Shown in pieces: positions 314-46,560 of a DNA stretch of 63,693 nt. The stretch covers positions 1 to 63,693 of the forward strand of contig JACQRE010000158.1 of the NCBI GenBank assembly GCA_016206585.1, given 5' to 3'. The first letter of the stretch is position 1, and every line of letters begins with the position of its first letter. The stretch comes from Candidatus Omnitrophota bacterium (GTDB taxonomy: Bacteria; Omnitrophota; Gorgyraeia; Aquiviventales; Aquiviventaceae). The notes under the pieces were generated by a model. The model ran no database searches, had not been told where the DNA came from, and saw only the letters and a program-made list of their open reading frames with translations. Made by a program: the position numbers and the translations under genes.

Positions 314-1347
314 CGCAGGTCTTGGTGACGGGCGGAGCCGGCTTCATCGGCTCGCACTTTATCCGGCTCTGGCTCGCAAGCCACCCGGATGACCGCGTCG
401 TCAACCTGGACCTCCTGACGTACGCCGGCTCGCGCGAGCGGCTCGCGGATCTGGAGGGCTCCTCCCGCTACCGATTTGTGCAGGGGACGATTGGCGATCC
501 CGCGGTGGTGCGGCAGGCGATGCAGGGCTGCGAGGCCGTGGTCCATTTCGCCGCGGAGACGCACGTGGACCGCTCCATCACCGACGCCGCACCGTTTCTG
601 CGCACGAACATTGAGGGGACCGACATCCTCCTGGACGCGGCGCGGGCAGGCGGTGTCGCGCGGTTCCTGCACGTGAGCACCGATGAGGTGTACGGGCCGG
701 TGCTGGAGGGGGAGGTGGATGAGCGGGCCCCCCTGTCCCCGCGCAGCCCCTACGCCGTCAGCAAGGCGGCCGGCGATCTGCTGGCCCAATCGTACTGGGC
801 GACGTACAGCCTGCCGGTGGTCGTGGCGCGGCCCACGAACATCTACGGGCCGGCGCAGTTCGTGGAGAAGTTCATCCCCCTGGCGATCATCAACAGCCTC
901 GAGGGGCTTCCGGTGCCGATCTACGGCGACGGGCAGCAGCGCCGCGCGTGGCTCTACGTCCAGGACGCCTGCGAGGCGGTCCGCACGATACTCGAGCGGG
1001 GGCAGCTGGGCGAGGTCTACAACATCGCCGGAGGCACCGAACAGCCGAACCTCGAGACGGCGCGGGCGATCGCGAAGCTGCTGGGCCGTCCGCCCGAGAG
1101 CCTGCAGCACGTGACGGACCGTCCCGGCCACGACCGGCGCTACGCGATGCACGACGCCAAGCTGCGCGCGCTGGGCTGGCGGCCGGCGACGCCATTTGAT
1201 CAGGGGCTAGCACAGACCGTGGCGTGGTACCGCGGCCAGCAGGACTGGTGGCGGCCACTGGCGAAGCGACTCCGTGAAGATCCTTATCACTGGCTCAACC
1301 GGTCTGCTCGGCCAGGCGCTGGGCGGCCATCTCGCAGCGCTCGGTGA
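310..1347 (+). CDS. rfbB: dTDP-glucose 4,6-dehydratase
   Basis: [17 protein letters not shown]..., YAVSKAAGD (YxxxK), DRPGHDRRYAMD. Typical RfbB length and motifs. Confidence 0.95.
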   Translation: MTQVLVTGGAGFIGSHFIRLWLASHPDDRVVNLDLLTYAGSRERLADLEGSSRYRFVQGTIGDPAVVRQAMQGCEAVVHFAAETHVDRSITDAAPFLRTNIEGTDILLDAARAGGVARFLHVSTDEVYGPVLEGEVDERAPLSPRSPYAVSKAAGDLLAQSYWATYSLPVVVARPTNIYGPAQFVEKFIPLAIINSLEGLPVPIYGDGQQRRAWLYVQDACEAVRTILERGQLGEVYNIAGGTEQPNLETARAIAKLLGRPPESLQHVTDRPGHDRRYAMHDAKLRALGWRPATPFDQGLAQTVAWYRGQQDWWRPLAKRLREDPYHWLNRSARPGAGRPSRSAR

Positions 1348-2233
1348 CGTGACCGGGGTCTCCAGGCGCCCACCAGCGTCGAGGGGAGGTTCTGCTCATG
1401 TCGCCTGCGACCTGCGCGACGCCGGCCGCGTGGCGGCGCTCGTTTCGCGGCTGCAGCCCGACGCCGTCATCCACTCGCAGGCGATGTCGGACGTGGACCA
1501 GTGCGAGCGGGATCCCGGCCTGGCGCGGGCGATGAACGCAAAGACCACCGCGAACCTCGTCCGGGCGCTGGGGGGCGCGCCGGCCGTGCTGCTCTACGTG
1601 AGCACCGACTACGTCTTTGACGGCGAGAAGGGACAGCCCTACAACGAGCAGGATGCGCCGCGGCCGATCAGCGTCTACGGGCAAAGCAAGCTCGAGGGCG
1701 AGCGGGAAGCGCTCCGCCATCCCCGCGCGGTGGTCGTCCGTCCCAGCACGCTCTTCGGGCCGGGACGGATGAACTTCTGCGACGCGATCGTGCGCGCCCT
1801 GCAGGAGGGGCGGACGATCGAGGCGTTCGTCGATCAGACGACCTCGCCGACGTACACCGAGGACCTGGCGGAGATGATGAAAGAGCTCATCGTGGTGTTG
1901 ACGCAATCGGGCCCTGCCCCCACACCAAACAGCGTCACCGGCGCAACAAGCCAAGCGACGCGTTTGGTGTGGGGGCGTGCCTCACGGATCGTGCACATGA
2001 GCAACGCGGGAGGGGCCAGCCGCGTGGCGTTCGCGCACCGGATCGCGGATCTCCTGGGCCGTTCCCGCGAGGCGGTGCGGCCGATCCGCATGGCCGATCA
2101 GCGCCGCCCGGCGAAGCGGCCGGCGTATTCCGCATTGACCAGCGCGGAGTTGGTGCCACTGACAGGGAGGATGATGCGACCATGGGACGACGCGCTGCAC
2201 GCCTATCTGCGCCAACGGGGCTGGCTCGGCTAG
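1274..2233 (+). CDS. rfbD: dTDP-4-dehydrorhamnose reductase
   Basis: GTG start gives MKILITGSTGLLGQAL, then STDYVFDG and YGQSKLEGE. It overlaps the rfbB 3' end by 74 nt and carries a ~20-aa in-frame insert. Confidence 0.9.
   Translation: MKILITGSTGLLGQALGGHLAALGDVTGVSRRPPASRGGSAHVACDLRDAGRVAALVSRLQPDAVIHSQAMSDVDQCERDPGLARAMNAKTTANLVRALGGAPAVLLYVSTDYVFDGEKGQPYNEQDAPRPISVYGQSKLEGEREALRHPRAVVVRPSTLFGPGRMNFCDAIVRALQEGRTIEAFVDQTTSPTYTEDLAEMMKELIVVLTQSGPAPTPNSVTGATSQATRLVWGRASRIVHMSNAGGASRVAFAHRIADLLGRSREAVRPIRMADQRRPAKRPAYSALTSAELVPLTGRMMRPWDDALHAYLRQRGWLG
1917..1975. repeat. 59-nt palindromic mini-element inserted in frame inside rfbD
   Basis: CCCCCACACCAAAC (1917-1930) pairs perfectly with GTTTGGTGTGGGGG (1962-1975). 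The loop contains GCAACAAGCCAAGCGAC. These are the same motifs as the intergenic hairpin families. Confidence 0.75.
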
Positions 2234-3520: not shown

Positions 3521-3575
3521 AGCGCGGAGTGCGGAATTCGGAGTTCGGAGTGGAAGCGTCATTCCGAACTGCGTC
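3521..3575. repeat. heptamer-repeat hairpin (CGGAGTn family)
   Basis: GCGGAGT GCGGAAT TCGGAGT TCGGAGT at 3524-3551, followed by the complementary ATTCCGAACTGCG at 3561-3573. Confidence 0.6.
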
Positions 3576-4540: not shown

Positions 4541-4567
4541 CCACGCGTTGCTTCACGCTGCGGGCTC

Positions 4568-4616
4568 CAGGCTACAAGCTGCAGCTTGCGGCTTGTAGCT
4601 TGCGGCTTGCAGCCTG
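4568..4616. repeat. heptamer-repeat hairpin (GCTTGCG family)
   Basis: GCTTGCG GCTTGTA GCTTGCG GCTTGCA at 4584-4611. Segment 4568-4583 pairs with 4601-4616 (14 Watson-Crick pairs plus 1 GU out of 16). Confidence 0.65.
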
Positions 4617-4621
4617 ATCGC

Positions 4622-5813: not shown

Positions 5814-6113
5814 GTGACCAAACAAGCCCTCACCCAGAAGCAGCAGGTGGTCCTCGAGTTCATTCAGCGCTTCTTCACGGAGCACCGGAAGTCGCCGCTC
5901 ATCCGGGAGATCCAAACCGGCTGCCAGATCGCCTCGTACAAATCCGCCATTGACCGGCTCAACGCGCTGGAGCGCAAAGGGTTCATCAGGCGGGCGTCCA
6001 ATAAGCACCGGGGCATCCGGTTAGTGCGCCGGCTGGCCGTTGAAGCGCCGGTGGCCGCCGGAGGGCCGCCGCCGCTGGGCGAGGGAGCGGCCGAGGGAGC
6101 CTCGGTGGTATGA
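5814..6113 (+). CDS. LexA-like winged-helix DNA-binding protein lacking the S24 peptidase domain
   Basis: [29 protein letters not shown]...[17 protein letters not shown]...RGIRLV matches the LexA N-terminal domain. A VAAG motif follows. The protein ends after 99 aa. Confidence 0.75.
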
Positions 6114-6253
6114 TCCCACCACCTGCGCCCCCTTGCCGCAGGCAAGGCACGAAGCGCGCCATGACCAGTCTTGCGGATTTTCAACCGCGCGCTTCGGCGT
6201 GGCGGCCTGCTGTGACGACCATGAGCCGCCGCGAGGCGCAGGTGGTGGAATGA
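6110..6253 (+). repeat. ATGA-flanked intergenic element, copy 2
   Basis: Stem 6113-6128 pairs with 6236-6251 (15/16). Hairpins are 6131-6137/6141-6147, 6150-6159/6187-6196 and 6199-6206/6225-6232. ATGA occurs at 6110-6113 (stop) and at 6250-6253 (start). Confidence 0.8.
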
Positions 6254-7212
6254 GAGTCCTCGTCACCGGCGGGGCGGGGTTCATCGGCTCCCATCTGTGC
6301 GACCGGTTTCTCCGGGACGGCCATGAGGTCGTCTGCGTCGATAACTTCCTGACCGGCAGCCGGACCAACATCGCGCACCTGCGTGCGCAGTCGGCGTTCC
6401 GGCTCATCGAGCACGACATCTCGAAGCCGCTCACCCTCGACGGGGCGATTGACGCGATCCTCCATTTCGCCTCGCCGGCCAGCCCGATCGACTACCTGAA
6501 GCTGCCCATCCAGACGCTGAAGGTCGGCTCGCTGGGCACGCTCAACGGCCTGGGGATCGCGAAGGCCAAGCAGGCGCGGTTCCTGCTCGCGTCGACCTCG
6601 GAGGTGTACGGCGACCCCAGCGTCCATCCGCAGCCCGAGAGCTACTGGGGGCACGTGAACCCGGTCGGGCCGCGCGGCGTCTACGATGAGGCCAAGCGGT
6701 TCGCCGAGGCGATCACGATGGCCTACCACCGGGAGCACCAGGTGGCCACGCGCATCGTGCGGATCTTCAACACGTACGGCCCGCGGATGCGCATGCAGGA
6801 CGGCCGGGCGATCCCGGCGTTCATCACGCCAGCGCTGCGGGGGGAGCCGATCACCGTGTTCGGGACGGGGGCGCAGACGCGCTCGTTCTGCTACGTGGAC
6901 GACCTCGTCGAGGGGATCGTGCGGCTGCTCCACTCCGATCACGCCGAGCCGATGAACCTGGGCAATCCGGAGGAGTACACGATCCTGCAGCTGGCCCAGC
7001 GCATCATCGAGGCCACGGGAAGCAAAAGCCGCATCGTCTACCAGACGCTGCCCCAGGACGATCCCAAGCAGCGGTGTCCCGACATCACGCTGGCAACGCG
7101 GACGCTGCAGTGGCAGGCGGCGACCCCGCTGGCCGCCGGGCTGCCGAAAACGATCGAGTGGTTCAGAACAGCCATGGGGCTGGCGTCCGCCGCAGGAGCG
7201 CGCCATGGCTGA
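6250..7212 (+). CDS. UDP-glucuronate decarboxylase (UDP-xylose synthase)
   Basis: [58 protein letters not shown]. Confidence 0.92.
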
Positions 7213-7621
7213 TCGACCTCCGCGTCCCTGGACCGCGATCGGGCTCGGCCTCGTGTTCGGCCTCTATGCCGTGCTCCTCGTCGCCGCGGTGCGCACGGGA
7301 GCACACCAGGCGTTCACCGGATGGACGGCGAAGCTGCTCACACTCGGCGGCATCGCCCTCGGGCTGCTGCCGTGGGGGGCGTGGCTACGGCCCCGGATCG
7401 TGTGGGGCCTGGGGCTTCTGGGGTGCTGGGCGCTGGTGGCGTGCTACCTCGTCCTGCTGGCACCCATCGCGCTGGTGGTCCGTCTCATCGGCGATCCGCT
7501 CAGCCGCCGGCGGCCCGCCCCCCCACCAACCAGGTTGGTGGGGGGGCCCGCCGGCTCCTCGCACTGGCTGGCGCGGCCCCCGCTGCCCAATACGCTTGAC
7601 GCTGCCCGTGTTGAGTACTGA
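7205..7621 (+). CDS. small polytopic membrane protein, SxtJ-like
   Basis: Three or four hydrophobic spans, then [13 protein letters not shown]. It lies immediately upstream of a carbamoyltransferase, as SxtJ-type genes do. Confidence 0.6.
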
Positions 7622-7752
7622 ATCACCAATGACCAAATTCCAAACACCACATAATCACCAAACATCAATGCACCAATCACCAAACCGTTTGGTGATTCGG
7701 TCATTGGTCCATTGGTCATTATGTGGTGATTGGAATGTGGTGTTTGGTTATT
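7621..7752. repeat. long imperfect hairpin, CACCAAn/TTGGTGA family, copy A1
   Basis: ~65-nt arms around centre CAAAC-C-GTTTG (7681-7691). AT-richer than the flanks. Starts at the last base of the SxtJ-like stop codon. Confidence 0.8.
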
Positions 7753-11980: not shown

Positions 11981-12062
11981 ACAGCCAGCAACAAGCAACA
12001 AGCGACACGCAGCACGTGAAGAATATTCTTTCCGTGTTGCATGTCGCATGTTGCATGTCGCG
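11981..12062. repeat. heptamer hairpin, GCGACAA/GCAACAA family, copy B1
   Basis: Left arm is ...AGCAACAAGCAACAAGCGACACGCAGCACG. The core is the palindrome AAGAATATTCTT (12019-12030). Right arm is CGTGTTGCATGTCGCATGTTGCATGTCGCG. Confidence 0.75.
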
Positions 12063-13240: not shown

Positions 13241-13375
13241 GAATCACCAATGACCAAGCACCAAACACCACATAATCACCAATGGACCAATGACCGAATG
13301 ACCAAACGGTTTGGTGATTGGTGCATTGGTGTTTGGTGTTTATGTGGTGATTGGAATTTGGTGTTTGGTGATTCG
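13241..13375. repeat. CACCAAn-family hairpin, copy A2, inverted relative to A1
   Basis: It fills the whole stop-to-start gap. The centre is CAAAC-G-GTTTG, the reverse complement of the A1 centre. The reverse complement of its right arm matches the A1 left arm at 60 of 65 positions. Confidence 0.8.
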
Positions 13376-15233: not shown

Positions 15234-15238
15234 GCCCT

Positions 15239-15333
15239 CAGCGACATGCGACATGCGACAAGCAACACTTCAACCGCCGATCCTTTAAGAGCTTGGTGGT
15301 TCCGTGTTGCATGTTGCTTGTCGCTTGTCGCTG
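15239..15333. repeat. GCGACAn-family hairpin, copy B2
   Basis: 30-nt arms at 15239-15268 and 15304-15333 are complementary at 26 of 30 positions. The loop is 35 nt. Confidence 0.8.
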
Positions 15334-15343
15334 ATACTCCTGT

Positions 15344-16366
15344 ATGACGCGCACCCCACTCGTGACCGTCTGCGTTCCCACCTATAACCGCGCCGGGTAC
15401 CTGCGCCAGTGCCTGGATTCGATTCTCGCGCAGACGGTGGACGCGTTCGAGCTGCTGGTGCTCGACAACGCCTCGACCGATGACACCCCTGAGGTGGTGC
15501 GGCATCTCGCGGATCCGCGCGTGCGCTGCGTCCGGCACCCGGAGAACCTGGGACAGATCCCCAACGTCAACCGGGGGCTGGAGCTGGCGAGGGGCGAATT
15601 CGTGTGCGTCTGCCACGACGACGACGTGTGGGCGCCGCGGTTCCTGGAGCGGCAGCTCGAGGTGATGCGCCGCCACCCGTCGGTCGCACTCTCGCACACC
15701 GCCGTCTGGCTCTGCACGGAGGAGGGGGTCGCGCGCGGCGTCCATCGGGTGAGTGCCCGCGACTACCTGCTCAACGGACGCGAGGCCTTTCTGCGCTACC
15801 TGGCGTTCGGGCACGACGTGGTGTTTTCCACGACGATGGTCCGCCGCGCCTGCTACCAGCAGGCCGGGCCGTTCGATGCCCGCTACCTGTGCGCCGACTT
15901 CGACATGTGGCTGCGCCTCTCGCTGCAGGGCGATGTCGCCTATGTGGCCAAGCCGCTGGCCGGATACCGGGTCCACGGGGCGAGTGCGTCGAGCGGCATG
16001 ACCGCCGTGCGGTGGTTCCAGGAGTATTTCGAGATCTTCGACCGGGCGGTCGCCCTGGGCGCTCCGCAGCTGCCGGAGTTGCCAGCACTGGCCGGTCGGC
16101 TGCGCGCCCGCGCGAAGCGCTTCCAGGCCCGGCGCGCCCGCATCGAGGCGGCCGCGTGCCTCGCGGCGGGCCACGACGCCGCCGCGCAGGAGTATCTCGA
16201 CGCGGCGGCGCGCCTGGATCGCTCACTGCCCAGTTCGCTCGCCACCGGGGCGTTGCGCCTGTGCCGCAATGCCGCTGGCCGCAGCGTGCTGAGTGGGATC
16301 AAGGCGGTACGACGTCGAGTACGCTCAGCGACAAGCGACAAGCGACAAGCAACAGTTACGCAATAG
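15344..16366 (+). CDS. GT2-family glycosyltransferase
   Basis: VTVCVPTYNRAGYLRQCLDSILAQT, LVLDNASTDDT, CHDDDVW. Confidence 0.9.
   Translation: MTRTPLVTVCVPTYNRAGYLRQCLDSILAQTVDAFELLVLDNASTDDTPEVVRHLADPRVRCVRHPENLGQIPNVNRGLELARGEFVCVCHDDDVWAPRFLERQLEVMRRHPSVALSHTAVWLCTEEGVARGVHRVSARDYLLNGREAFLRYLAFGHDVVFSTTMVRRACYQQAGPFDARYLCADFDMWLRLSLQGDVAYVAKPLAGYRVHGASASSGMTAVRWFQEYFEIFDRAVALGAPQLPELPALAGRLRARAKRFQARRARIEAAACLAAGHDAAAQEYLDAAARLDRSLPSSLATGALRLCRNAAGRSVLSGIKAVRRRVRSATSDKRQATVTQ
16326..16355. repeat. solo arm of the GCGACAA family (no partner arm)
   Basis: GCGACAA x3 at 16328-16348, then GCAACAG. It encodes the last residues (SDKRQATVTQ) of the GT2. Confidence 0.65.
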
Positions 16367-16383: not shown

Positions 16384-17358
16384 ATGAAAACGGCATTACT
16401 GGAATGGCTGGCGTGTCCCGCGTGCCGGGGCACGCTGCGCCTGGCACAGCCGGTGCACCAGGGCGAGGAGATCGTCTCCGGCGCGCTGGGCTGCGAGAGC
16501 TGCTCGCGCGCCTACCCGATCGTGCGGGGGATCCCCCGCTTCGTCGCCGACGACAGCTACGCCGGCAACTTCAGCTTCGAGTGGAACCGGTTCCAGACCA
16601 CCCAGCTCGACAGCCGGCAGCAGCGCGGCGAGTCGGAGCGGCGCTTCCGGCAGAGCCTCGACATCCCGCTGGAGCAGCTGAAGGGGCAGCTCGTCCTGGA
16701 CGCCGGCTGCGGGATGGGCCGCTTCGCCGAGATCGCCCTCCATCACGGGGCCACGGTCGTGGCGATGGACCTCAGCTTCGCGGTGGACGCGGCGGCGAAG
16801 AACCTCTCGCCGCAGCCCGACGCTCACGTGGTCCAGGCGAACCTCTTCGCCCTGCCGTTCCGCCCTGAGACGTTCGACCTGATCTACAGCCTCGGCGTGC
16901 TGCACCACACGCCCAACCCCCGGAAGGCGTTCGAGGGGCTGGTGGAGCTGCTCAAGACCGGCGGGAAGATCAGCGTGACGCTCTACAGCGGCTATAACAC
17001 CGTCTACGTGCGCTCCACGAGCTTCTGGCGGTTCGCGCTGAAGCGGCTCCCCGGCCGCTGGCTCTACCGCCTGTCGCACCTCGCCATCCCGTACTACCAC
17101 CTCTGCCGGATCCCGCTGCTCGGGTTGGGGTTTCAGGCGCTGTTTCCCATCAGCATGCACCCGGATCCCGAATGGCGGGTCCTCGACACCTTCGACTGCT
17201 ACAGCCCCACGTACCAGTCCTACCACACCCACCACGAAGTGTTCCGGTGGTTCAAGGAGGCGAACTTGACCGGCGTCGAAGTGCTGGAACCAGGCATCTC
17301 GTTAATTGGTGGAAAGCGCACAGTCAGCGACAAGCGACAAGCAACAAGCAGCACTTGA
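16384..17358 (+). CDS. class I SAM methyltransferase with an N-terminal Trm112-like zinc ribbon
   Basis: LEWLACPACRG...CESCSRAYPIVRGIPRF, then VLDAGCGMGRF and LLKTGGKI. Confidence 0.85.
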   Translation: MKTALLEWLACPACRGTLRLAQPVHQGEEIVSGALGCESCSRAYPIVRGIPRFVADDSYAGNFSFEWNRFQTTQLDSRQQRGESERRFRQSLDIPLEQLKGQLVLDAGCGMGRFAEIALHHGATVVAMDLSFAVDAAAKNLSPQPDAHVVQANLFALPFRPETFDLIYSLGVLHHTPNPRKAFEGLVELLKTGGKISVTLYSGYNTVYVRSTSFWRFALKRLPGRWLYRLSHLAIPYYHLCRIPLLGLGFQALFPISMHPDPEWRVLDTFDCYSPTYQSYHTHHEVFRWFKEANLTGVEVLEPGISLIGGKRTVSDKRQATSST

Positions 17359-17400
17359 AGAATATTCTCACGTGTTGCCTGTCGCTTGTTGCCTGTTGCT
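17321..17400. repeat. GCGACAA-family hairpin, copy B3
   Basis: Left arm CAGTCAGCGACAAGCGACAAGCAACAAGCAGCAC, core TGAAGAATATTCT, right arm CGTGTTGCCTGTCGCTTGTTGCCTGTTGCT. Confidence 0.75.
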
Positions 17401-21779: not shown

Positions 21780-22975
21780 TCACCGTCTTGCATCTCTCGC
21801 ACTGCCTCAACCGCTACGACTATATCGACGCGGTGATCCGGCACGCGGACCCCGCGCAGTTCCGCATGCTGGCCGCGACGCTGACGGATGACGGCTCGGT
21901 GCGTCCCGGGGCGGCGCCGTATCCGGTGACCGTGTTGGGCGTGCGCGCCCGGACCCAGTGGCCGGCTGCGGCGGCGGCGCTGCGGCGCCTGTGCCGGAGC
22001 GAGCGCGTGGACGTCGTCCATACGCACAATCTCGATTCGACGGCGATCGGCGCCTTCGCCGCGCTCGGCATCCGCCGGGTGCGGCTCGTCATCGGGCGGC
22101 ACTACGCGGATGCGCTCTATCAGCTGCGCCCCGCCTGGAAGTGCCGCGCCCTCCTGGCGCTGGAAGGCTGGTGCAACCGCCGCGCGGCGCGCCTCATCGC
22201 GCCCTCCTCCATGGTGCGCGCGATCCTCGTGGAGCGTCAGCGCGTGCCGGCGCGGCGTGTCGCGCAGATTCCGTACGGGTTCGACTTCGCCAAGCATCAG
22301 GCGTCCGTGGATGCGCCGGCACGGCTGCGGCGCGAGCTGGGGCTGGAGGGGGCGGCCGTGCTGGGCAGCTTCTCGCGGTTGAACGCCGATAAAGGGCACG
22401 CCGATCTGTTGCGCGCCTTCGCCCGGCTGCAGCCGGGGCGGCCCACGCTGCGCCTGCTCCTCGTCGGGGAGGGGAACGTCAGGCCGCGCCTTGAGGCGCT
22501 GGCCCGGGAGCTCGGCGTGCAGGAGCGGGTGCGGTTCGCCGGGTGGCGCGCGGATGTCATCGACCTCATGGCGATGGCGGATGTGGTCGCGCACCCCTCG
22601 CTCCACGAGGCGTTCAGCCAGGTGATGGTGGAGGCGCTGGCCATGGGCAAGCCGCTCGTGATCACCGACGTGAGCGGTGTCGCCGATGTCGTGCGGGATG
22701 GCTGGAACGGGCTCATCGTCCCGAAGGCGGATCCGGCGGCGCTGGCGGCGGCGGTCACGCGGCTGCTCGACCATCCCGAGGAGGCCGCCGCAATGGGCGC
22801 GCGCGGGCGCGCGCGGGTGCGCCGCGAGCTGGACATCCACGTCATCATCACACAGTACGAAGCGGTCTATCGGAACGTGATGGGGCAGGAACAATCACCA
22901 AACACCAAATCTCAATCACCAAATAATCACCAAGATCCAATCACCAATGACCAAACAATTGAGGTCATCGCGTAG
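21776..22975 (+). CDS. GT4-family glycosyltransferase
   Basis: VAHPSLHEAFSQVMVEALAMGKPLVITDVSG. The last ~30 aa are a translation of the left arm of repeat A3. Confidence 0.88.
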   Translation: MITVLHLSHCLNRYDYIDAVIRHADPAQFRMLAATLTDDGSVRPGAAPYPVTVLGVRARTQWPAAAAALRRLCRSERVDVVHTHNLDSTAIGAFAALGIRRVRLVIGRHYADALYQLRPAWKCRALLALEGWCNRRAARLIAPSSMVRAILVERQRVPARRVAQIPYGFDFAKHQASVDAPARLRRELGLEGAAVLGSFSRLNADKGHADLLRAFARLQPGRPTLRLLLVGEGNVRPRLEALARELGVQERVRFAGWRADVIDLMAMADVVAHPSLHEAFSQVMVEALAMGKPLVITDVSGVADVVRDGWNGLIVPKADPAALAAAVTRLLDHPEEAAAMGARGRARVRRELDIHVIITQYEAVYRNVMGQEQSPNTKSQSPNNHQDPITNDQTIEVIA

Positions 22976-23041
22976 TTGTTTGGTGATTGGTGTTTGGTTA
23001 TTGGAGCTTATTTGGTGATTGGAATTTGGTGATTGGTGATT
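22893..23041. repeat. CACCAAn-family hairpin, copy A3
   Basis: ~66-nt arms at 22893-22958 and 22976-23041, with a 17-nt loop. The stop codon of the upstream GT4 lies in the loop. Confidence 0.8.
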
Positions 23042-41183: not shown

Positions 41184-42308
41184 ATGCGCATCCTCGCCGT
41201 TGCCACCAATCCCGAGACCGGTGCCAGTACCCGCTTCCGCGTCCTCCAATGGGCGCCGGTGCTGGAGCGCGAGGGGTTTTCGCTGGCGGTCGAGCCCTTC
41301 TACTCCCCCCGGGCCTCGGCGGTGCTGTATCGGCGCGGCCGGCCGCTGGGCAAGCTCTCGCATTTCATCCGCGGTGCCATCCGGCGCCGCGCGGTGCTCG
41401 CCCGCGCGTCCACCGAGGCCGAGATCCTCCTCATCCACCGGGAGGCGTTTCCGCTGGGTCTGCGCTGGTCGCTCGGCGCGGTCAAGCGGTTCGGCGGGCC
41501 CCTCCTCTATGATTACGACGACGCGATGTTCGTGCCGCAGCGGCAAGGGCGGGGAGTGCTCGCGCGGCTGGAGCACCTCGACACCCCGAAGGAGCTCATG
41601 GCGCTGAGCGACGTCGTGCTGGCCGGCAACGAGTTCCTCGCCGCGTACGCGCGCCGGTACGCGCGCCGCGTCGTCCTGCTGCCCACCTGCATCGACACGG
41701 CGCGGTTCAGGCCCGGACCCGCATCCGAGCCAGACGGCCGGCCCCTCACCATCGGCTGGATCGGCAGCCACTCGACGACCAAATACCTGGAGAGCGTCAA
41801 GCCGGTGCTGGAGCGGCTCGGTGCCGGCCTCCCGTTTCGCGTCTCCATCGTGGGCAGCGCAGTACCGCTGAGGCTGCGCGGCGTCGAGGTCAGCCAGACC
41901 GCCTGGGCGCTCGAGCGCGAGGCGGAGGATTTTGCGCGCTGCGACATCGGCGTCTATCCGTTGTGGGACGACCCGTGGAGCCAGGGCAAGTGCGGGTTCA
42001 AGGCGATCCAGTTCATGGCCTGCGGCGTGCCCGTCGTCGCCTCCGCGGTCGGAGCGAACCGCGAGATTATCCAGGACGGCGTCAACGGGTTCCTCGCCGC
42101 CACACGCCAGGAGTGGCTCGAGAAGCTGGGCCGGCTGCTCACCGATGCCGCCCTGCGCGCGCGGCTGGGCGAGGCGGGGCGGCGGACCATCGAGGAGCGC
42201 TATTCTCTGGCGGCACAGGCGCCACGGCTCGTTGGAGCGCTGCGCGAGGCGCTCACGAACCACAGAAGCACAGAGACAGTGCCACAGAAGCACAGAGAAG
42301 AGCAATGA
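41184..42308 (+). CDS. GT4-family glycosyltransferase
   Basis: IGWIGSHSTTKYL, KCGFKAIQFMACGVPVVASAVGANREII. The C-terminal tail (NHRSTETVPQKHREEQ) is a translation of repeat C1. Confidence 0.85.
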   Translation: MRILAVATNPETGASTRFRVLQWAPVLEREGFSLAVEPFYSPRASAVLYRRGRPLGKLSHFIRGAIRRRAVLARASTEAEILLIHREAFPLGLRWSLGAVKRFGGPLLYDYDDAMFVPQRQGRGVLARLEHLDTPKELMALSDVVLAGNEFLAAYARRYARRVVLLPTCIDTARFRPGPASEPDGRPLTIGWIGSHSTTKYLESVKPVLERLGAGLPFRVSIVGSAVPLRLRGVEVSQTAWALEREAEDFARCDIGVYPLWDDPWSQGKCGFKAIQFMACGVPVVASAVGANREIIQDGVNGFLAATRQEWLEKLGRLLTDAALRARLGEAGRRTIEERYSLAAQAPRLVGALREALTNHRSTETVPQKHREEQ

Positions 42309-42384
42309 CCAATTACCAAGGCTCCTTTTGGTGTTTGGTAATTGGCTTTCTCTGTGTTTCTGTGGGATTCTGTGGTTCTGTGGT
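42259..42384. repeat. mosaic hairpin C1 (CACAGAA outer arms, CCAAT/TTGGT inner arms)
   Basis: ACCACAGAAGCACAGAGACAGTGCCACAGAAGCACAGAG...CCAATTACCAA / TTGGTGTTTGGTAATTGG...CTCTGTGTTTCTGTGGGATTCTGTGGTTCTGTGGT. Confidence 0.8.
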
Positions 42385-45595: not shown

Positions 45596-45690
45596 CACCA
45601 CAGATGACACAGAAGCCACACAGAACCACAGAGGGAGGCGGCTTATTCACACGCTTCTGTGCTTCTGTGGATTTCTGTGATTTTGTGGTG
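45596..45690. repeat. CACAGAA-family hairpin, copy C2
   Basis: CACCACAGATGACACAGAAGCCACACAGAACCACAGAG ... CTTCTGTGCTTCTGTGGATTTCTGTGATTTTGTGGTG. It starts directly after the RTX stop codon. Confidence 0.75.
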
Positions 45691-45796: not shown

Positions 45797-46423
45797 ATGA
45801 ACCCTGACGCCTATCGCGAACTCAAAGTGCTCGAAGAGCTGTCCCACAATGCCGATCACACCCAGCGGCATCTGGCCAAGCAACTTGGGGTCGCACTGGG
45901 CCTGACCAACCTCATGATCAAGCGGCTGGTCCGGAAGGGCTATGTCAAGATCGTGAACCTCCAGCGCAACCGCATTCGCTATCTGGTCACCCCCCAGGGC
46001 ATTGCCGAGAAGACCCGCCTCACCTACGAGTACCTGGAGTACTCCCTCTATCTGTATCGCCGCGTCCGCGAGGTGCTCCAGCAGCGCATGCGCGAGGTCG
46101 GCGAGCGCGGCGGGAAGGACATCGTGCTCTTCGGGGTCGGGGAGCTCGCCGAGGTCGCCTACCTGACGATCCGGGGGCAGGGGCTCAACCTCGTGGGGGT
46201 CGTGGATGACCGGGTGGCCGGCACGACGTTTCTGGGGCTGGCCGTGTCGCCCTCCGAGGCGCTGCCGGCCCTGCAGTTCGACGCCGTGATCGTCAGCTCC
46301 CTGGATAACGAGTTGGTCGGACTGAACAGGCTCCAGGAACTGGGAATCGACCGGGCACGCATCATCGTCATGGAGCAGCGCGGCTCGCAGATTCACCCGG
46401 TCCTGCCGGGAGCCAGCCGATGA
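45797..46423 (+). CDS. MarR-like winged-helix regulator fused to a Rossmann-like C-terminal domain
   Basis: TQRHLAKQLGVALGLTNLMIKRLVRKGYVKI, then DIVLFGVGELAEVAYL...VGVVDD. Confidence 0.7.
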   Translation: MNPDAYRELKVLEELSHNADHTQRHLAKQLGVALGLTNLMIKRLVRKGYVKIVNLQRNRIRYLVTPQGIAEKTRLTYEYLEYSLYLYRRVREVLQQRMREVGERGGKDIVLFGVGELAEVAYLTIRGQGLNLVGVVDDRVAGTTFLGLAVSPSEALPALQFDAVIVSSLDNELVGLNRLQELGIDRARIIVMEQRGSQIHPVLPGASR

Positions 46424-46560
46424 TCCCACCACCTGCGCCGGCCACGCCGGTGGCGTGGCCGCGAGGCGCTCGAATGAGTCGACACGTCATGAGAGTGATG
46501 CAACTACTGAACGGCCTCGCCACGGCGGCGTGCCGCCGTGGGGCGCAGGTGGTGGGATGA
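46420..46560 (+). repeat. ATGA-flanked intergenic element, copy 3
   Basis: Perfect 17-bp stem 46423-46439 / 46542-46558. Hairpins are 46440-46448/46452-46460, 46461-46467/46514-46520 and 46521-46529/46532-46540. ATGA occurs at 46420-46423 and 46557-46560. Confidence 0.85.

Follow-up and report, generated by a model that had tools for sequence, protein, structure and literature searches.

Rickettsia palindromic elements (RPEs) are palindromic repeats of ~100-150 bp that are inserted in frame into unrelated housekeeping genes and translated, in a manner compatible with the fold of the host protein (PMC10969869). [quoted passage not shown] Here we describe a palindrome that lies in frame inside rmlD, the gene for dTDP-4-dehydrorhamnose reductase, on a 63,693-nt stretch of DNA with 68% G+C (the whole stretch is called the window below). 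It is, in our view, likely to be a miniature non-autonomous transposable element, both MITE-like and RPE-like, with a 59-nt body and 14-nt TIRs. Its parts and immediate surroundings are as follows (L001 and L172 are contigs with, respectively, a filled and an empty orthologous site).

1274..2233, + strand: rmlD (dTDP-4-dehydrorhamnose reductase) coding sequence hosting the insertion, assigned by TIGR01214, PF04321, AlphaFold2/Foldseek and dN/dS (the ratio of nonsynonymous to synonymous divergence)
1913..1916, + strand: left copy of the 4-nt TSD, decayed to CCTG (CCCG in L001; empty site in L172)
1917..1975, strand undefined: 59-nt hairpin element, CCCCC...GGGGG, read in frame as RmlD residues ~215-236
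1917..1930, + strand: left TIR, CCCCCACACCAAAC, shared without change by L001 and by 48 contigs from other organisms
1932..1961, + strand: inner stem GCGTC/GACGC (1932-1936 / 1957-1961) enclosing a 20-nt loop, with A1931 bulged, from the RNA fold
1962..1975, + strand: right TIR, GTTTGGTGTGGGGG, the exact reverse complement of CCCCCACACCAAAC
1976..1979, + strand: right copy of the 4-nt TSD, decayed to CGTG (by comparison with L001 and L172)

The two arms had been reported in the initial annotation, and their sequence is exactly as it gave them; the perfect repeat is one base longer per side, the G1916/C1976 pair lengthening it to 15 bp (1916-1930 / 1962-1976). The inner 5-bp stem is the counterpart of a stem that covaries in the wider family of such hairpins (stem 2, see below). 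The RNA fold of positions 1906-1986 has a free energy of -52 kcal/mol, against -29.6 +/- 3.3 kcal/mol for 200 shuffled sequences, none of which folded as well (z = -6.9). In a census of perfect inverted repeats with arms of at least 14 nt and a loop of at most 60 nt, the window contained two, whereas 300 first-order Markov simulations averaged 0.073 and only one of them reached two or more. The second repeat of the census (7517-7547) belongs to the same sequence family as the rmlD palindrome, which the covariance model R1 scores at 48.3 bits (E = 1.6e-9).

A search with RmlD returned 3138 homologues, nearly all the named ones being from Candidatus Omnitrophota at 55-60% identity. All homologues at 74% identity or less lack ~19-21 amino acids at the position of the insert (alignment A1), in keeping with the ~20 extra residues that had been noticed earlier. 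The insert is present in P0002, a fragment 81% identical to RmlD, encoded on the ENA contig L001, which is an independent assembly. The DNA of L001 has the same arms as the window (AGG CCC G[CCCCCACACC...GGTGTGGGGG]CCC GCC TCG CGG), and its 59-nt element is flanked on both sides by a perfect CCCG. The orthologue P0005 (70% identity; contig L172), on the other hand, provides the empty site, CGA TGG CCC GCC TCG CGC ATC (RWPASRI). The presence of CCCG on both sides of the element in L001 and of a single CCCG in L172 thus means that the insertion added 59 + 4 = 63 nt, or 21 codons. Indeed, taking out these 63 nt gives back RPASRVVH, which matches the (W)PASR(I/V)VH of the homologues. These alignments show that the element inserted at CCCG in rmlD in the common ancestor of the window organism and the L001 organism, duplicating 4 nt.

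The idea, put forward in the initial annotation, of an in-frame palindromic mini-element in rmlD analogous to RPEs is therefore borne out by the empty site in L172, by the TSD in L001 and by copies elsewhere. Of the two observations that it had named as contradicting the idea, a homologous insert without a palindrome was not seen, as the only orthologue with the insert (that of L001) has the palindrome too, and an assembly artefact is ruled out by the independent assembly of L001. The steps that it had proposed, alignment, structural modelling and a search of other coding sequences, delimited the insert by means of the RmlD homologues (63 nt, 21 amino acids), placed it in a surface loop of the AlphaFold2 model and, in the window and in contigs of other organisms, uncovered further in-frame copies.

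The host protein itself seems to have tolerated the insertion. The ORF at 1274-2233 matched TIGR01214, the equivalog model of rmlD, with 237 bits (cut-off 224) and PF04321 with E = 1.3e-68, and the catalytic motif is kept despite the insert, Y135 and K139 being invariant in alignment A1. The AlphaFold2 model of RmlD had an overall predicted local distance difference test score (pLDDT) of 93.5 and, in Foldseek, template-modelling (TM) scores of 0.88-0.92 against the solved RmlDs 3sc6, 1vl0 and 1kbz. Low pLDDT (52-69) together with coil was found only at residues ~212-238, between the helix 195-211 and the strand 239-241; compared with 3sc6, 33 residues (207-239) stand in place of 7. The model thus predicts that the insert occupies a surface loop that is disordered, the rest of RmlD being intact. 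RmlD of the window has diverged from that of L001 with dN = 0.10 and dS = 0.42 (dN/dS ~0.24), values that point to purifying selection since the insertion. The 63 nt keep the frame and contain no stop and, to judge by the open frame, would be translated, adding 21 residues to the loop.

RmlD is not the only protein with such an insert. The second copy in the window lies in the following gene.

7205..7621, + strand: conserved small membrane-protein gene hosting the second copy (11 homologues, 48-66% identity, conserved C-terminus)
7518..7546, strand undefined: second, loop-less copy, CCCCCCCACCAACC-A-GGTTGGTGGGGGGG (R1 32.8 bits, E = 8.6e-6)

This copy has two compensated changes in its arms and is flanked by CCCG (7514-7517) and CCCG (7547-7550). 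It encodes a 10-amino-acid insert in the C-terminal tail of the 7205-7621 protein, and 11 of 11 homologues are without those residues; the length of the insert (30 nt) is unequal to 29 + 4 nt, leaving the exact junction uncertain. The protein matched no family in Pfam and NCBIfam, and its gene sits upstream of a carbamoyltransferase gene.

In other organisms, one family copy forms part of the open frame of a DUF6390 protein from a Minisyncoccia metagenome-assembled genome (MAG; contig L009); the protein's Pfam match covers residues 2-262 on 236 profile positions. The insert is present in three orthologues of this protein (L009, L169 and L170, with protein identities of 100, 80 and 70%) and absent from orthologues whose identity is 65% or less. 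Copies also lie in frame in a DUF6938 protein (L018) and in the C-terminal region of an SMC protein (L019), and one is read through at the extreme C-terminus of Ddl (L025). In a prepilin leader (L049), MVKRGF[TPTPNNRASLLKYNKNGLVWGF]TMIELLVV, the 22-amino-acid insert is flanked by TTTA/TTTA and regenerates the G|F processing site. The arms are free of stop codons in all six frames, and three different arm frames are in use among the intragenic copies. When the other ~35 copies were excised in silico, no gene interrupted out of frame was found; the candidate L017 was rejected, as it translates to nonsense. Besides 7518-7546, loop-less derivatives occur in L018, L021 and L035. The one in L018 (2089-2176) is an arm pair, CCCCCACACCAAAC-TTTGGTGTGGGGG, nested in the loop of a larger, partly degenerate member, the whole arrangement being read through in the DUF6938 ORF.

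The wider family was collected by pattern. An exact search for CCCACACCAAAC-N15-45-GTTTGGTGTGGG matched 17 contigs among GTDB species representatives, including two Candidatus Liptonbacteria, a Candidatus Wolfebacteria, a Candidatus Saccharibacteria, two Minisyncoccia, several unclassified MAGs and one Gammaproteobacteria MAG, as well as three Micromonosporaceae, one Desulfotomaculum and one Cytophagia MAG that resemble outliers. A slightly longer pattern matched 31 JGI metagenome contigs. In all, the hairpin CCCCCACACCAAAC...GTTTGGTGTGGGGG was found in 48 other contigs, mostly of the Candidate Phyla Radiation (CPR)/Patescibacteria, with a host G+C of 32-72%. Its bearers are thus bacteria that are related only very distantly and live mostly in groundwater, and the family is apparently undescribed. 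Nothing relevant emerged when the literature was searched for the arm sequence and for MITEs of CPR bacteria, and the window and 14 loci had no Rfam match at the gathering score; in E-value mode there were only sub-threshold matches to generic hairpins (miRNA precursors).

The core consensus of the family is (R)CCCCCACACCAAAC - RRG... variable ...CYY - GTTTGGTGTGGGGG(Y), with hairpins of 45-86 nt (modal length 67 nt), an overall range of 29-86 nt and a conserved basal stem of 14-16 bp. Of the 6 positions of stem 2, 4.18 form Watson-Crick pairs, against 2.19 +/- 0.17 with permuted partners, although 40 different 6-mers are represented. In alignment A6, double changes were seen in 10 of 21 pairs, and none of 500 shuffles matched the observed covariation. 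In many members a small GCGC-loop-GCGC hairpin follows, and then a 12-17-nt A/T-rich tract. Three Micromonosporaceae loci (L010, L013 and L015, from Actinoplanes / Nucisporomicrobium) share an orthologous long perfect intergenic hairpin that has only the 12-nt core CCCACACCAAAC/GTTTGGTGTGGG in common with the family. It has neither CC/GG ends nor flanking repeats of 4 nt, and the pattern probably caught a conserved hairpin of unrelated kind here. These three loci, together with L002, L012 and L047, were treated as outliers or chance matches.

Perfect 4-nt direct repeats flank 14 of 36 non-redundant copies, whereas the permutation null gave 4.0 and at most 11 in 5000; TTTA, TCAA, TAAA, CAGA and CCCG were seen. 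Flanking 4-mers matching at three or more of the four positions were found for 22 of the 36 copies, against 8.5 expected. The excess is confined to flank positions 2-5, and the duplication is therefore 4 nt long; the flanks suggest a target resembling G|YNNR|C. A model with a 6-nt TSD (GTNNAC) was rejected, since only positions 2-5 are above expectation. At the Liptonbacteria locus, the near-identical L004/L031/L045 and L032 differ only in the right flank, GTGGAC versus GTCCAC, with a 2-nt core that is either inverted (making the stem 6 bp longer) or direct (TSD-like). This difference could be a hairpin-templated correction of the flank.

Most copies are solitary and lie in short spacers between co-directional genes. 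All-versus-all BLAST of the flanking ORFs revealed no shared neighbouring gene, except among the three Micromonosporaceae loci. The asymmetric inner hairpin has no orientation bias relative to the flanking genes (5 same, 6 opposite) and thus gives no support for a strand-specific RNA role, and strand inference from G.U wobble was inconsistent. More than one copy was seen in the window (two), in L008 and in L028 (two each) and on two contigs of one MAG; a scan of 294 kb of flanking sequence with the covariance model added none. The hairpin pattern had no match in IMG/VR, where a single arm gave only solitary chance 14-mer matches, and the hairpin appears not to be phage-borne. Plasmid BLAST with one family member gave no arm match.

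We noted that the hairpin is conserved after insertion, too. Between the window and L001, the 39 arm-proximal nucleotides (1916-1936 and 1959-1976) are unchanged, against a synonymous p-distance (pS) of 0.32 in the rest of the gene, and the loop centres, equal in length, differ at 11 of 22 positions. In the DUF6390 orthologues synonymous sites are saturated (pS 0.68-0.75), and the inserts differ at 4-7 of 52 paired positions versus 4-7 of 17 unpaired ones. Almost all of the paired differences are compensated, while the encoded amino acids change and the minimum free energy stays at -43.5 to -43.8 kcal/mol. The changes affect the arms (CCAAAC/GTTTGG to CCCAAC/GTTGGG to CTCAAC/GTTGAG), stem 2 (AAGGAT/ATCCTT to AAAGAT/ATCTTT) and the small hairpin (GCGCT..AGCGC to GCGCC..GGCGC). 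Gene conversion from arm to arm could keep complementarity but could not lower the rate below neutral, and the nucleic-acid hairpin is therefore under selection. According to these comparisons, purifying selection acts on the hairpin even inside coding sequence.

If the palindrome is a MITE-like element, a transposase recognizing the conserved arms would mobilize it in trans. Such an enzyme might be sought among IS1380-type elements, with 'CC' ends and duplications of 4-5 bp, or among IS5, IS701 and IS1182, with 4-bp duplications. Intragenic copies would persist because none of the six frames of the arms contains a stop and because retention is limited to insertions that preserve the frame and fall in tolerant loops, and horizontal transfer would have spread the element between CPR bacteria and the lineage of the window. 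Several observations weigh against this explanation. The duplication in the window itself is imperfect (CCTG/CGTG, 3/4 identical), and the DUF6390 insert, at 66-69 nt, is unequal to 67 + 4 nt, so that a secondary 2-nt deletion must be assumed. TTTA and TCAA dominate the flanks, and part of the direct-repeat signal could reflect target preference or element sequence. As members were collected by an exact-arm pattern, some of the arm conservation seen across the family reflects ascertainment; L169, L170 and 7518-7546 alone came to light without the pattern. At most two copies were seen per genome or locus, which is low for a MITE family, and the fetched flanks and loci, where these were looked for, contained neither an autonomous element or transposase with these ends nor solitary arms. 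Finally, such strong conservation of fixed orthologous copies would not be expected of a selfish insertion that is dead, and more than mobility is involved.

The last point is best accommodated if the hairpin is mainly a functional cis-acting DNA or RNA module that a conserved factor binds or processes in a sequence-specific manner, and mobility only spread it. We regard this as possible, and it refines the MITE-like explanation rather than excluding it. It would fit the conservation of 14-16-nt arms across very different lineages spanning 32-72% G+C, the compensatory changes in three stems of orthologous intragenic copies despite saturated synonymous sites, the arms that stay unchanged between the window and L001, and an inner architecture in which stem 2, the small GC hairpin and the A/T-rich tract are kept. 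The lack of an Rfam match, of a conserved neighbouring gene and of an orientation bias speaks against it, as do the loop-less derivatives (7518-7546, L018, L021 and L035) and a loop content that varies freely, and no candidate trans factor was identified. A stronger version, which we consider doubtful, holds that the hairpin is a sequence-specific structured module, common to several phyla, that is actively needed by the cells or by a resident enzyme, hence its compensatory preservation. It could then be the recognition hairpin of a hairpin-binding recombinase, nuclease or RNA-processing activity common to CPR bacteria and their neighbours and, in the boldest version, that activity could process host mRNA or DNA at the hairpin.

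Alternatively, the rmlD insert might be a copy or derivative of hairpins of a different kind that the genome itself carries. The window has at least 11 AT-rich intergenic hairpins, in which one arm consists of tandem degenerate heptamers and the other of the inverted array.

3525-3551, 4550-4617, 7621-7752, 11987-12061, 13241-13374 and 15238-15334: AT-rich heptamer hairpins, first group
16327-16354, 17326-17400, 22890-23041, 42257-42384 and 45598-45688: AT-rich heptamer hairpins, second group

Their units are CACCAAN, AGCGACA/AGCAACA, CACAGAAG, CGGAGTT and TGCAGCT. The hairpins at 7621-7752 and 13241-13374 are homologous copies, and at 42282-42365 ACCAA units are nested inside CACAGAAG units. 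The initial annotation held that the rmlD repeat shares its motifs with the intergenic hairpins: an 8-mer, CACCAAAC, and a 9-mer, GCAACAAGC, do recur, but the identity of the repeats was not established. Nor was its further claim that the insert is direct evidence for these repeats being, or having been, mobile, since R1 matches them only at E = 0.13-1. Descent of the insert from the CACCAAN and AGCRACA hairpins, which would show these to be mobile, is in our opinion unlikely. The element does share with them a 10-mer, ACACCAAACA, together with GCAACAAGC and CAAGCGAC in the loop, and k-mer sharing as extensive was found in only 0.4% of 20000 structure-preserving shuffles, which makes a distant relation possible; composite nested hairpins, such as that at 42282-42365, are moreover present in the window. 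However, its arms match the cross-phylum family over 14-16 nt and not the heptamer arrays, the heptamer hairpins show no CCCCC/GGGGG ends, and a single shared 8-mer or 9-mer is frequent by chance (52% and 20% of shuffles, respectively). Moreover, GCAACAAGC and CAAGCGAC, which are typical of the AGCRACA hairpins, lie in the window loop at 1943-1960 and are missing from the orthologous loop of L001. The similarity of the window loop to the heptamer hairpins may be due to chance, to conversion from a heptamer hairpin or to a shared mutational process.

It is very unlikely that the hairpin directs its own removal from the message, or its skipping by the ribosome, as an intron or a translational bypass would, to give a protein without the 21 residues. 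Such a process would account for the strong structural conservation of the intragenic copies, and the 4-nt duplication would let the original ORF be restored exactly. Against it, every intragenic copy found keeps the frame and is free of stops, with three reading frames of the arms represented, excision of ~35 copies in silico yielded no gene interrupted out of frame (L017 being nonsense), and no ribozyme or intron model matched. The probability that the palindrome arose by chance in a loop extension peculiar to the lineage, or is an artefact of assembly, is negligible, for, although the window is GC-rich with many short palindromes, two such inverted repeats were seen against 0.07 expected, the independent assembly L001 carries the same insert, identical arms occur in 48 unrelated contigs, and the frame is preserved in an rmlD under purifying selection.

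A second, unrelated TIR family, ~136-139 bp long, is present in the window at 176-311, 6113-6251 and 46423-46558, with the ends (GATG)ATCCCACCACCTG ... CAGGTGGTGGGAT(GA). Its left end overlaps the TGA stop of the upstream gene, and the downstream gene (rmlB at 310; a decarboxylase-like gene at ~6250) takes its ATG from the right end. This arrangement is reminiscent of the Neisseria REP2 and Borrelia IR repeats, which carry a ribosome-binding site and ATG.

Taken as a MITE-like element, the rmlD palindrome offers a filled-site/empty-site case in which 59 nt would have transposed into an enzyme of an essential pathway and been kept. The remodelling of proteins by palindromes in the manner of RPEs would then not be peculiar to Rickettsia, occurring also in CPR/Patescibacteria and in a high-GC lineage that, by RmlD similarity, is probably Omnitrophota. 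In CPR genomes, which are tiny, mobile DNA is considered scarce. That an ultra-short element with near-identical ends is shared by many CPR classes and an unrelated lineage points to gene flow, or to a shared mobilizing enzyme, among co-resident groundwater ultra-small bacteria. The compensatory preservation of the hairpin inside ORFs makes it a tractable case for asking what maintains palindromes within genes. In annotation, the element would account for unexplained low-confidence loops of 10-23 amino acids in otherwise conserved proteins.

Among known systems, attC sites, REP/RAYT, parS-like protein sites, hammerhead-type ribozymes and an IS608-like TTAC/TCAA asymmetry were dropped on sequence or architecture. 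The family resembles RPEs in lying in frame in at least six host proteins, with translation judged from the open frames, and in its surface-loop position in RmlD. Unlike RPEs, which are confined to Rickettsia and are ~100-150 bp long, its members are 29-86 nt long, end in sharp TIRs of 14 nt, are flanked by a 4-nt TSD and are found in CPR/Patescibacteria and at least one high-GC lineage; by host and length they fall outside RPE-1 to RPE-10, the comparison being with the description of these elements rather than an alignment to an RPE consensus. With MITEs such as Correia/NEMIS, ERIC, Chunjie and Nezha, the rmlD element has in common its TIRs, a TSD with empty sites, a small size without a transposase gene, the stem-loop and fusion to a host ORF. 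It differs from them in that the family is much shorter, with few copies seen per genome and no known cognate insertion sequence, in that its arm sequence is common to different phyla, and in that compensatory change preserves the hairpin as a whole rather than its TIRs alone. REPs and bacterial interspersed mosaic elements (BIMEs) are likewise short, extragenic palindromes of similar size that form hairpins as single strands, with proposed roles in mRNA stability and DNA topology; in contrast to REP/RAYT systems, the element starts with CCCCC and has a 4-nt TSD, whereas REPs leave none, and no RAYT was seen nearby.

Integron attC sites are imperfect palindromes of 57-141 bp with arms RYYYAAC/GTTRRRY. 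They were considered because the element, too, has a bulged base and an AAAC...GTTT core, and they share with the family an imperfect palindrome, a variable central part and extrahelical bases. Judged by this consensus, however, the arms do not fit RYYYAAC/GTTRRRY and there is no unpaired central spacer; the copies are solitary, flanked by direct repeats and not part of a cassette array. Very short GC-rich mobile palindromes inside protein-coding genes are known from yeast mitochondria as GC clusters and byp elements, the latter being skipped by the ribosome. Unlike these organellar byp elements, the copies of the hairpin family described here lie in frame and are apparently translated as part of their host proteins.

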